A program made the position numbers and the translations under genes. Of a DNA stretch of 32,000 nt, positions 20,364-21,773 are shown in pieces. This DNA is from Synechocystis sp. PCC 6803 substr. PCC-P. GTDB lineage: Bacteria; Cyanobacteriota; Cyanobacteriia; Cyanobacteriales; Microcystaceae. The stretch lies in the NCBI RefSeq assembly GCF_000284455.1, contig NC_017039.1:2580001-2612000 (forward strand), read 5' to 3'. The notes beneath the pieces are model-generated. The model saw only the letters and a list, made by a program, of their open reading frames with translations, made no database searches and was not told the DNA's origin. The stretch's first letter is position 1; each line of letters opens with the position of its first letter.

Positions 20364-20418
20364 AAAATTTAAGTCTAAACTACTTTTTTCTAACTTCAAA
20401 TCGGTGGTGCCTAGCACA

Positions 20419-21609
20419 ATGTCAAACAAGATCCCCAAAAATAGAACTCGGACATTTGACTTGACTCCCGGTGAAAAACCGGACATGTCCCCCTATTTAT
20501 TTCATTTGACAACAAAAGACAGCCTAATAAATATTCTAGAACAACAAAAATTAATATTGAATATCCCTCGTGGTGCAAATAAAGAGAAGCATCCATATAA
20601 AATGGTTTGTTTTACTGAAAGCCCACCCTTCGCATTAGATTTTTTTAGATATAGATGGAGTGACAGAAAAGATAGAATCAACTTAGAGTATGGCTTAGGA
20701 TTTAGCAAAGAGACAATGGTTCATAAAGGTGTTTATCCTACTGTTTATCTTGACGAATCTTTGTTTAGTTACGTCAAAGATCTTAAAAAAAGAGTAGATG
20801 GTAGCCAAAAATCAACCAATGAAATGAAGAAGGAAATGGAACTTTTGATAGCACAAATTTCCCCTCTATTTGAAAATGCAGACTTACGGGGCTATACATG
20901 GGAAAGAGAATGGCGATGTACACGAGGAGATTCTCTAGAGTTTGATTATGTCGATATAAGATATATTTGTTGTCCACGCGCAGAACAAGAAGCTATCAGA
21001 AAAATAATAGAAGATTCTAATGAGGTTGAAGCTATCCAGCACATTCAATTTTTAGAAAATTGGCAGGAGTATGATGAAATAACCACTTTTTTGCAGAGGA
21101 GACAATTTACTGGAGACGATGAATTAGAGGAACTACTGGCGGAAAAGTGCCGTACCAACAATTTAATTAATTATTACAATTCACACTATAAAAAAATAGA
21201 TGAACTGAAAACTCATCTCAACCAGGTAGTCAATTACATAAATAACAAAAAAGAAGAGATTCAAGATTCAATCAACAGAGAAGCAATACTTGAATATATA
21301 GCAGAAAATTTTGGAGAAGAGTCAATTGAAGGAGGTGTAAAGAGTATAATAAATGACGGGAGTATTGACCTCGGCTTAATTATTGCCAATGTTGCATATT
21401 GTGTCAAACAGAAAGTGAAAAAACAGGTGAAGGGAAAAAAAGTAGATGGAGAATACATACGTCGCAGCATAGAAGAAAACTATGCAGATAACCAAACTCA
21501 AAAAGAACGAAACAATGACAACAAAGTGATAGAGGATATTGAAAGTGGTATGAACTCTTCATTCAATTCAAAGTGGGAGAGGATAATCGACCCACTAGAA
21601 CAACATTGA
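20419..21609 (+). CDS. AT-rich orphan protein: AbiGi-like N-terminal domain fused to a charged, probably coiled-coil C-terminal module
   Basis: It is the only long ORF in the AT-rich stretch. The ordered motifs are SPYLFHLT, KMVCFTESPPF, EYGLGFSKETMVHKGVYPTVYLDE and GYTWEREWRC. The start is ATG 20419 or ATG 20485. The track start at 20299 overlaps natA and is unlikely. Confidence 0.7.
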   Translation: MSNKIPKNRTRTFDLTPGEKPDMSPYLFHLTTKDSLINILEQQKLILNIPRGANKEKHPYKMVCFTESPPFALDFFRYRWSDRKDRINLEYGLGFSKETMVHKGVYPTVYLDESLFSYVKDLKKRVDGSQKSTNEMKKEMELLIAQISPLFENADLRGYTWEREWRCTRGDSLEFDYVDIRYICCPRAEQEAIRKIIEDSNEVEAIQHIQFLENWQEYDEITTFLQRRQFTGDDELEELLAEKCRTNNLINYYNSHYKKIDELKTHLNQVVNYINNKKEEIQDSINREAILEYIAENFGEESIEGGVKSIINDGSIDLGLIIANVAYCVKQKVKKQVKGKKVDGEYIRRSIEENYADNQTQKERNNDNKVIEDIESGMNSSFNSKWERIIDPLEQH

Positions 21610-21773
21610 CTATTGAGATGTGTATTGTATTTGTATGCCTTGTTTTTACAATGCAAAGTTAATGATTTAAGCTAATCCAGTGGCTACCTTATCTAATAAT
21701 CTCTAGGTTTTGCTTGGACAATGGGGTATAATGGGACGTTTGGGAATTATTAATTAGGAGATGACCAACTAAG

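Follow-up and report, generated by a model that had tools for sequence, protein, structure and literature searches.

What is a single AT-rich gene doing between natA and rpsD, two housekeeping genes of Synechocystis sp. PCC 6803? The gene, slr0468, lies in the 32,000-nt stretch of the substr. PCC-P chromosome analysed here (NC_017039.1, positions 2,580,001 to 2,612,000; hereafter the window), and in resequencing papers on PCC 6803 its product is described as a hypothetical protein without conserved domains (PMC3514855). An original prediction, made from the letters alone, had seen in it an AbiGi-like protein with an unknown appended module, and thus a candidate for phage defence. The reading that we favour, while giving it somewhat less than an even chance, is that slr0468 is a horizontally acquired long-form AbiGi protein with an ADP-ribosyltransferase (ART) core and a coiled-coil tail, which would act as a single-gene, NAD+-dependent abortive-infection effector.

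The family affiliation of slr0468 becomes visible through its relatives: the protein itself scores beneath every AbiGi hidden Markov model (HMM), and it is its homologues that reach the Pfam family PF10899. A search of 5.8 billion proteins retrieved 148 relatives, and HMMER, run over the complete set of 1.84 billion representatives, yielded 108 matches, 39 of them with E <= 1e-30. PF10899 was matched at E <= 0.01 by 25 out of 41 aligned family members, with scores of 25.5-27.0 bits for P0006, P0013, P0024, P0038 and P0052 (the curated cut-off being 22.4) and 20.3 bits for P0004, and the PADLOC AbiGi model was matched by 21 out of 51 members. When the family profile was aligned by hhalign to a profile of 33 short AbiGi proteins, 200-268 aa in length and including P0171 with its 51.7 bits to PF10899, the match had a probability of 99.94% and an E-value of 9.8e-37, and extended from residue 20 to 230 of slr0468 against 13-227, i.e. 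over nearly the whole length of the short AbiGi proteins. The four N-terminal motifs are indeed present in the order originally predicted, SPYLFHLT at residues 24-31, KMVCFTESPPF at 61-71, EYGLGFSKE...YLDE at 89-112 and GYTWEREWRC at 158-167, and the motifs DxSxFLxHxT, VCFTExP, YGxxFxK, PVxY and WEREWR are shared, in the same order, with the short AbiGi proteins. Judging from these profiles and motifs, the N-terminal ~230 aa are homologous to AbiGi proteins, in agreement with the earlier view of this half. The assignment as such is not new, since RefSeq already uses the name “abortive infection system antitoxin AbiGi family protein” for shorter versions of slr0468 (WP_231848037.1, WP_238569084.1 and WP_223211283.1), while in GenBank and UniProt (Q55165) the label is still hypothetical or Slr0468.

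AbiGi (PF10899; PADLOC PDLC02331) is the first component of lactococcal AbiG from plasmid pCI750, for which abortive infection has been validated; the system has an effect on phage transcription, and its trigger is a major tail protein (PMC13064643). AbiG is a two-gene system, validated since 1996, for which the mechanism is still listed as unknown. With its 396 aa rather than about 200-260, slr0468 differs from AbiGi in the added coiled-coil tail and, unlike AbiG, it has no AbiGii partner beside it.

The ART fold of the core had been missed by the original prediction. An AlphaFold (AF2) model of residues 1-236, built from a 78-sequence alignment, has a pLDDT of 90 and a pTM of 0.86, and residues 1-232 are predicted to adopt the split beta-sheet ART fold. 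A Foldseek comparison of this model with 350,542 PDB chains placed five DarT entries and yeast Tpt1 in the top six positions, with four Thermus DarT entries at E-values from 2.6e-4 to 9.6e-4 and a probability of 1.00, in addition to DarT from M. tuberculosis; Agrobacterium 6b and diphtheria toxin, which are ART folds as well, appeared as further weak matches. The ranking of PDB matches remained unchanged when the full-length model was used. A fold search of BFVD returned nothing but uncharacterised viral proteins, and was thus uninformative. Independently, a survey from 2025 lists PF10899 among the known, poorly studied ART families, near DUF2971 and DarT (PMC12522546). The ART signature given there, [R/H]x[D/T] - [S/Y][T/x][S/x] - [Q/E]x[Q/E/D] (PMC12522546), finds putative counterparts in H29-L-T31, T66-E-S68 and E162-R-E164, of which the first lies on a model strand, the second at the end of another, and the third enters a strand preceded by a helical insert (residues 113-145; for the strands see Table 1).

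The candidate signature residues are conserved throughout the family. H29 is present in 142/142 long and 41/41 short homologues, [T/S]66 in 142/142 long forms, S/T68 in 140/142, and E162 in 143/143 long and 48/51 short forms; taken together, H29, [T/S]66, E164, W165 and R166 occur in every one of the 196 homologues with a residue at the respective position. The core region is recognized in all 214 homologues that we collected, and the long-form clade has in addition its own invariant residues (D74, R77, G94, G158, C184-C185 and W215). From this pattern we infer that a catalytic site is conserved in the slr0468 core.

Comparison with the relevant ART families shows both common and distinguishing features. 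DarT (DUF4433), a DNA ADP-ribosyltransferase and the toxin of the DarTG toxin-antitoxin and anti-phage system, is the best match of the core among solved structures, and shares with it a six-stranded ART core, helical inserts and a third motif with Glu. There is, however, no similarity at the sequence level, DUF4433 (PF14487) hitting neither slr0468 nor any of the 41 members, and the special catalytic residues of DarT, R51, H119 and E160 (PMC9967889), could not be mapped onto slr0468. Also in contrast to DarTG, a DarG macrodomain or NADAR antitoxin is absent from the window, and none recurs near the homologues among the 25 commonest Pfam families listed. DUF2971 (PF11185), predicted to be an ART family and described as resembling AbiGi and DarT, carries an H / ExE signature, with large helical inserts located between beta1 and beta2 and between beta4 and beta5 (PMC12522546), and the model of slr0468 likewise has its helical insert ahead of the ExE strand; nevertheless, none of the 41 members matched DUF2971 at E <= 0.01, and motif II reads T-E-S in slr0468 as opposed to the conserved Tyr reported in DUF2971. 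The RNA 2'-phosphotransferase Tpt1/KptA, a nucleic-acid-directed enzyme with an ART fold, is a weaker match (probability 0.57-0.66), and differs by its H-H-h signature without ExE, as well as by being a housekeeping enzyme, whereas slr0468 is accessory.

The C-terminal part had been expected to be a coiled coil, and the full-length model agrees with this, showing a 64-residue helix (residues 235-298) followed by more helices up to the C-terminus; the heptad periodicity of the 64-residue helix was reached by none of 2000 shuffles. The idea that this module is a novelty peculiar to slr0468 did not hold. Tails of 69-201 aa (median 96) are found in all 143 long-form representatives, which come from many phyla, and a heptad signal with p <= 0.05 is seen in 125 of these tails, so that the heptad-periodic tail is a hallmark of a widespread long-form clade, and only the last ~96 residues are clade-specific. 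The closest orthologue, P0002, shares 84% identity with slr0468 in the core and in the coiled coil, and only 52% in residues 301-396; the latter segment is recognizable only in P0001-P0003 and P0146. By sequence comparison, the tail is thus the fast-evolving part of the protein. No tail-only match was found among the 1.84 billion representatives. Searches of PDB chain sequences with the long-form profile returned only coiled-coil proteins, via the tail, and matches of family members to LmuB, JetC and PbeC were disregarded as matches of coiled-coil composition.

Several observations weigh against the interpretation of slr0468 as an ART-type defence effector. The direct test that had been proposed, a search with the protein itself against Pfam (PF10899, PF11185) and PADLOC, gave no match: in Pfam, PADLOC, NCBIfam and PHROGs there was only noise at E > 0.03, with no match to PF10899 at E <= 10 and none to DUF2971 in Pfam. 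The TM-scores of the core to DarT are only 0.40-0.48, with high rmsd. Furthermore, a tail-free profile of short forms had no match among PDB chain sequences, so that a sequence-level link to a solved structure was not found; as sequence-profile searches of PDB gave either coiled-coil matches or none, the link to DarT is purely structural. The proposed equivalence of motifs I, II and III to the catalytic residues of ARTs is likewise derived from predicted strand positions, and for lactococcal AbiGi a structural match was looked for in vain in a review from 2026. The literature contains no experiment on slr0468 or on any long-form relative. An unpartnered toxin-like enzyme would also have to be kept harmless in some way. 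Finally, Pfam and NCBI label AbiGi as “antitoxin”, which would not predict an effector.

This label is the starting point for an alternative that we consider unlikely, namely that slr0468 is one half of a toxin-antitoxin pair without the other: an AbiGi antitoxin on its own, which either remains from an AbiGii-type toxin system or acts on such a toxin in trans, non-catalytic and with no defence role of its own. In its favour are the family name, the two-gene make-up of lactococcal AbiG and the absence of an adjacent partner. The label, however, is based on analogy rather than on experiment, and the invariance of the three ART-type motifs in the 196 homologues argues for a conserved active site, and against a protein that does no more than bind. 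Moreover, the gene is indeed a stand-alone one, as originally supposed. No second ORF lies between natA and rpsD, there is no recombinase (integrase) or transposase within 6 kb of slr0468, and the sole tRNA of the window is situated at 758-830. Among 38 homologue loci in reference genomes, no AbiGii or other partner is recurrent: no neighbour protein cluster is common to at least three loci, no Pfam family occurs in more than four of the 141 flanking proteins, and a phmmer pass over the flanking proteins at E 1e-2 yielded only unrelated pairs. Since the solo arrangement is the rule in these loci, which span many phyla, it does not represent a local loss in Synechocystis. The assumption that AbiGi normally works with AbiGii fails for the family as a whole, since short forms are also found without it, e.g. 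with a Shedu nuclease and a zeta toxin as neighbours, or surrounded by IS elements.

An active ART with a role outside defence, e.g. in regulating host proteins or nucleic acids during stress, or in serving as an effector or toxin against other cells, seems similarly improbable. It would agree with the ART fold and motifs, with the fact that ART families are often effectors (PMC12522546), and with the position of the PCC 6803 copy among housekeeping genes. Nevertheless, genes for secretion systems or immunity are not recurrent in the neighbourhood, close relatives lack slr0468, and its patchy, horizontally transferred, AT-rich occurrence with defence-gene neighbours fits immunity better than core regulation. 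The neighbours of long forms include LmuB, RmrA, AriA, type I methyltransferase, SIR2-pAgo, Old, GajA, AbiLi, BrxL and integrases, with PADLOC or Pfam E-values of 1e-63 for LmuB, 8e-248 for the methyltransferase, 1e-92 for SIR2-pAgo, 1e-82 for Old and 8.5e-128 for BrxL. This is a list of raw matches, and an enrichment of defence genes near the long forms is at most putative.

The accessory nature of slr0468 becomes apparent when the natA-rpsD junction is compared across genomes with identical RpsD. Three states of the junction were found, so that, as had been anticipated for an accessory gene, one relative has an empty site and another carries different cargo. In PCC 6803, the slot is occupied by slr0468; in GCA_015207515.1, homology extends exactly to the stop codon of natA (20363) and sets in again at 21727, leaving a 202-bp spacer; and in CP019225.1 it ends at 20372 and resumes at 21719, with flanks 98% identical and an unrelated gene in between. 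Other cyanobacterial homologues reside at different loci, with 43% identity in S. salina and 42% in Synechocystis sp. B12, and the gene is more AT-rich than its own flanks at 34 out of 38 loci. The slot states, the homologues at other loci and the AT-richness together point to repeated horizontal acquisition, and indicate that slr0468 is an accessory, horizontally acquired gene. Neither a target-site duplication nor terminal inverted or flanking repeats were found at the segment, and insertion of a transposon or integrative element is not supported, as there are no repeats or recombinase genes. In view of this, the cargo may most simply have been exchanged through homologous recombination in the flanks.

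It seems quite unlikely that slr0468 is selfish cargo of mobile elements, such as an addiction or anti-defence gene lodged at a recombination-prone junction with no benefit to the host. Its foreign composition, the accommodation of an unrelated orphan gene in the same slot, and the existence of plasmid copies next to Tn3 and integrase genes, as on an Aliivibrio plasmid, would all be compatible with such an origin. Yet the locus contains no recombinase, repeats or element ends, and relatives were found neither in 50,697 phage genomes by tblastn nor in a scan of IMG/VR, which led us to reject a phage origin as well. The ORF is also intact, and the 2.9-kb region around it is matched with 100% nucleotide identity by two further contigs, of which one is a chromosome of the PCC 6803 type. 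It is highly improbable that slr0468 is a non-enzymatic structural or scaffolding coiled-coil protein with a merely ART-like N-terminal domain: the helical tail does make up ~40% of the protein and TM-scores to ARTs are below 0.5, but the ART-type motif residues are its most conserved positions and the tail is the least conserved part. Overall, these four alternatives agree less well with the invariant motifs, with the solo pattern across phyla and with the missing hallmarks of mobile elements than does a long-form AbiGi effector.

The other occupants of the slot deserve a brief description. The cargo of CP019225.1 (L005 4624-5820) has a GC content of 0.307 and codes for an unrelated protein of 398 aa, which begins with a coiled coil and has a C-terminus rich in D, Y and W. 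This protein is an orphan with a single near-identical homologue among 5.8 billion proteins, and as its PADLOC matches were coiled-coil noise only, it speaks neither for nor against the idea of a defence hot spot. The 202-bp spacer of GCA_015207515.1 (L004 5752-5953), with a GC content of 0.43, is related to neither cargo and includes an ORF of 35 aa, MEEITGYSASITELSEKLFTMPHEETSLSSGNAPP. In the same genome, gene order departs from that of PCC 6803 also 3' of rpsD (L004 7455-8327), with genes for a SWIM zinc-finger protein and for an unknown protein of 246 aa in place of the AI-2E transporter gene region. In Synechocystis sp. B12 (CP101709.1; L060 5001-5983 and L056 5001-6215), which also harbours the 42%-identical long-form paralogue at a separate locus, slr0468 occupies the same slot and is split into ORFs of 111 and 206 aa. 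We do not regard it as a pseudogene: over 7 kb, the region shows 98.7% identity and 13 gaps, and the flanking genes are split as well, so that the split is probably due to assembly indels. The sequence shared by the three slot states resumes at TATAAT, 42 nt 5' of the rpsD start, and this hexamer may serve as the -10 part of a promoter; any -35 element of the rpsD promoter would then be inside the variable cargo. In a promoter and terminator scan of the locus, sites were no more common than in shuffled sequences and a terminator was not found, and an Rfam scan of the locus gave no match.

The features of the locus are listed in Table 1. The abrupt drop in G+C content after the natA stop codon, estimated by hand in the original prediction, was borne out by the full computation. 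The variable segment, 1.36 kb in length, has a GC content of 0.345 as compared to 0.489 for the rest of the window; along the profile, values of 0.50-0.55 in natA fall to 0.31-0.39 over 20400-21800 and return to 0.52-0.56 in rpsD. For slr0468 itself, GC is 0.346 and GC at third codon positions 0.300, versus 0.52-0.58 for the latter in five neighbouring genes, and its region is the lowest-GC 1191-bp window of the entire 32 kb (0.338; mean 0.482, standard deviation 0.038).

Table 1. Features of the natA-rpsD region of Synechocystis sp. PCC 6803 (positions are those of the window)
Feature	Position	Strand	Basis or remark
Variable AT-rich cargo segment	20364..21726		Between natA stop and sequence shared 5' of rpsD
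slr0468 CDS, long-form AbiGi-family protein	20419..21609	+	396 aa plus stop; ORF and conserved N-terminal motif
Conserved core, residues 1-232, AbiGi-like, predicted ART fold	20419..21114	+	hhalign, AF2, Foldseek
Putative ART motif I, H29-L-T31, strand beta1	20503..20511	+	Conservation and model strand 26-31
Putative ART motif II, T66-E67-S68, end of strand beta2	20614..20622	+	Conservation and model strand 62-67
Putative ART motif III, E162-R-E164 (ExE) in WEREWR	20902..20910	+	Conservation; entering model strand 164-167
Predicted coiled-coil stalk, residues 235-298	21121..21312	+	Continuous model helix and heptad periodicity
Clade-specific helical C-terminus, residues 301-396	21319..21606	+	Fastest-evolving part
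Left flank, natA-type ABC transporter ATPase	19560..20363	+	Pfam ABC_tran and BCA_ABC_TP_C; GC 0.519; housekeeping
Right flank, rpsD (ribosomal protein S4)	21774..22382	+	Pfam Ribosomal_S4 and S4; GC 0.517
TATAAT where sequence common to three slot states resumes	21727..21732	+	Alignment and blastn boundaries

As predicted, slr0468 is the single gene in the AT-rich segment. Its reading frame is open from 20299 to 21609, with ATG codons at 20299, 20419 and 20485, and the original prediction had left the choice between the latter two undecided. In an alignment of 41 homologues, the motif TPTFxLTPxEKPDMSP is conserved 5' of the third ATG, and therefore we place the start at 20419, yielding a product of 396 aa. 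The sequence of the window is found unchanged in the PCC 6803 chromosomes CP003265.1 and CP129343.1, and the exact protein is recorded for PCC 6803 as BAM54347.1. The RefSeq models, of 374 and 382 aa, begin 3' of the family-conserved TxTFxLTPxEKPD motif and thereby cut it off (window 20419-20484), and the 436-aa GenBank/UniProt model starts inside natA, while conservation favours the ATG at 20419. Q82 and N88 in the slr0468 of the window are corrected residues, as opposed to original database errors. Apparent allelic variants of ORF length at loci L001, L003 and L006 were rejected: at the DNA level, L001 and L003 match the window with 100% identity, and the differences in length thus reflect choices made by gene callers.

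Elsewhere in the window, the second lowest-GC patch (0.39-0.40 at 1501-3000) holds a gene for a patatin-like phospholipase (1237-2346; PF01734, 58 bits), followed by an ORF of 223 aa (2614-3285) without a Pfam match. It is located near the tRNA-Ala gene (minus strand), and the region 1237-3285 may be another small accessory or defence islet.

How might a long-form AbiGi effector operate? The core (residues 1-232) would use NAD+ to ADP-ribosylate a target, which would probably be a nucleic acid, as suggested by the modification of DNA and RNA by DarT and Tpt1 and by the effect of lactococcal AbiG on phage transcription. slr0468 would thereby act as a self-contained abortive-infection or anti-phage effector, and its variable tail (residues 233-396) may mediate oligomerization and/or trigger sensing and self-restraint, replacing a separate antitoxin. 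A precedent is offered by CapRel-type fused toxin-antitoxin defence proteins, which combine a conserved toxic enzyme domain with a variable C-terminal region in one polypeptide, the latter being able to restrain the toxic domain and to sense phage proteins. The likeness is one of concept only: there is no homology between these proteins and slr0468, and autoinhibition of slr0468 is no more than an idea. Going further, one could imagine long-form AbiGi proteins as a new class of single-polypeptide immune sensor-effectors, in which a hypervariable tail, rather than a separate antitoxin, restrains a DarT-like nucleic-acid ART until a phage structural protein binds, and the natA-rpsD junction as a hot spot for recombinase-free cassette swapping through homologous recombination in its conserved flanks; this extension we consider doubtful.

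The AbiGi family, the RefSeq name of slr0468 and the classification of the family among ARTs were known already. To these we add a solo long-form clade with a coiled-coil tail, a putative, intact ART signature and a DarT-like model for slr0468, a corrected start codon and a slot with three states. For the family, this provides a concrete and mutable hypothesis for the mechanism of AbiG, that of an NAD+-dependent ART with H29 and E162/E164 as putative catalytic residues, placed in a partner-free form of AbiGi and in a genetically tractable model cyanobacterium. For Synechocystis, it suggests a probable role for slr0468, a gene overlooked by standard defence-finding HMMs, and the three-state slot represents a natural system in which the turnover of single-gene defence cassettes may proceed without any mobile-element machinery.

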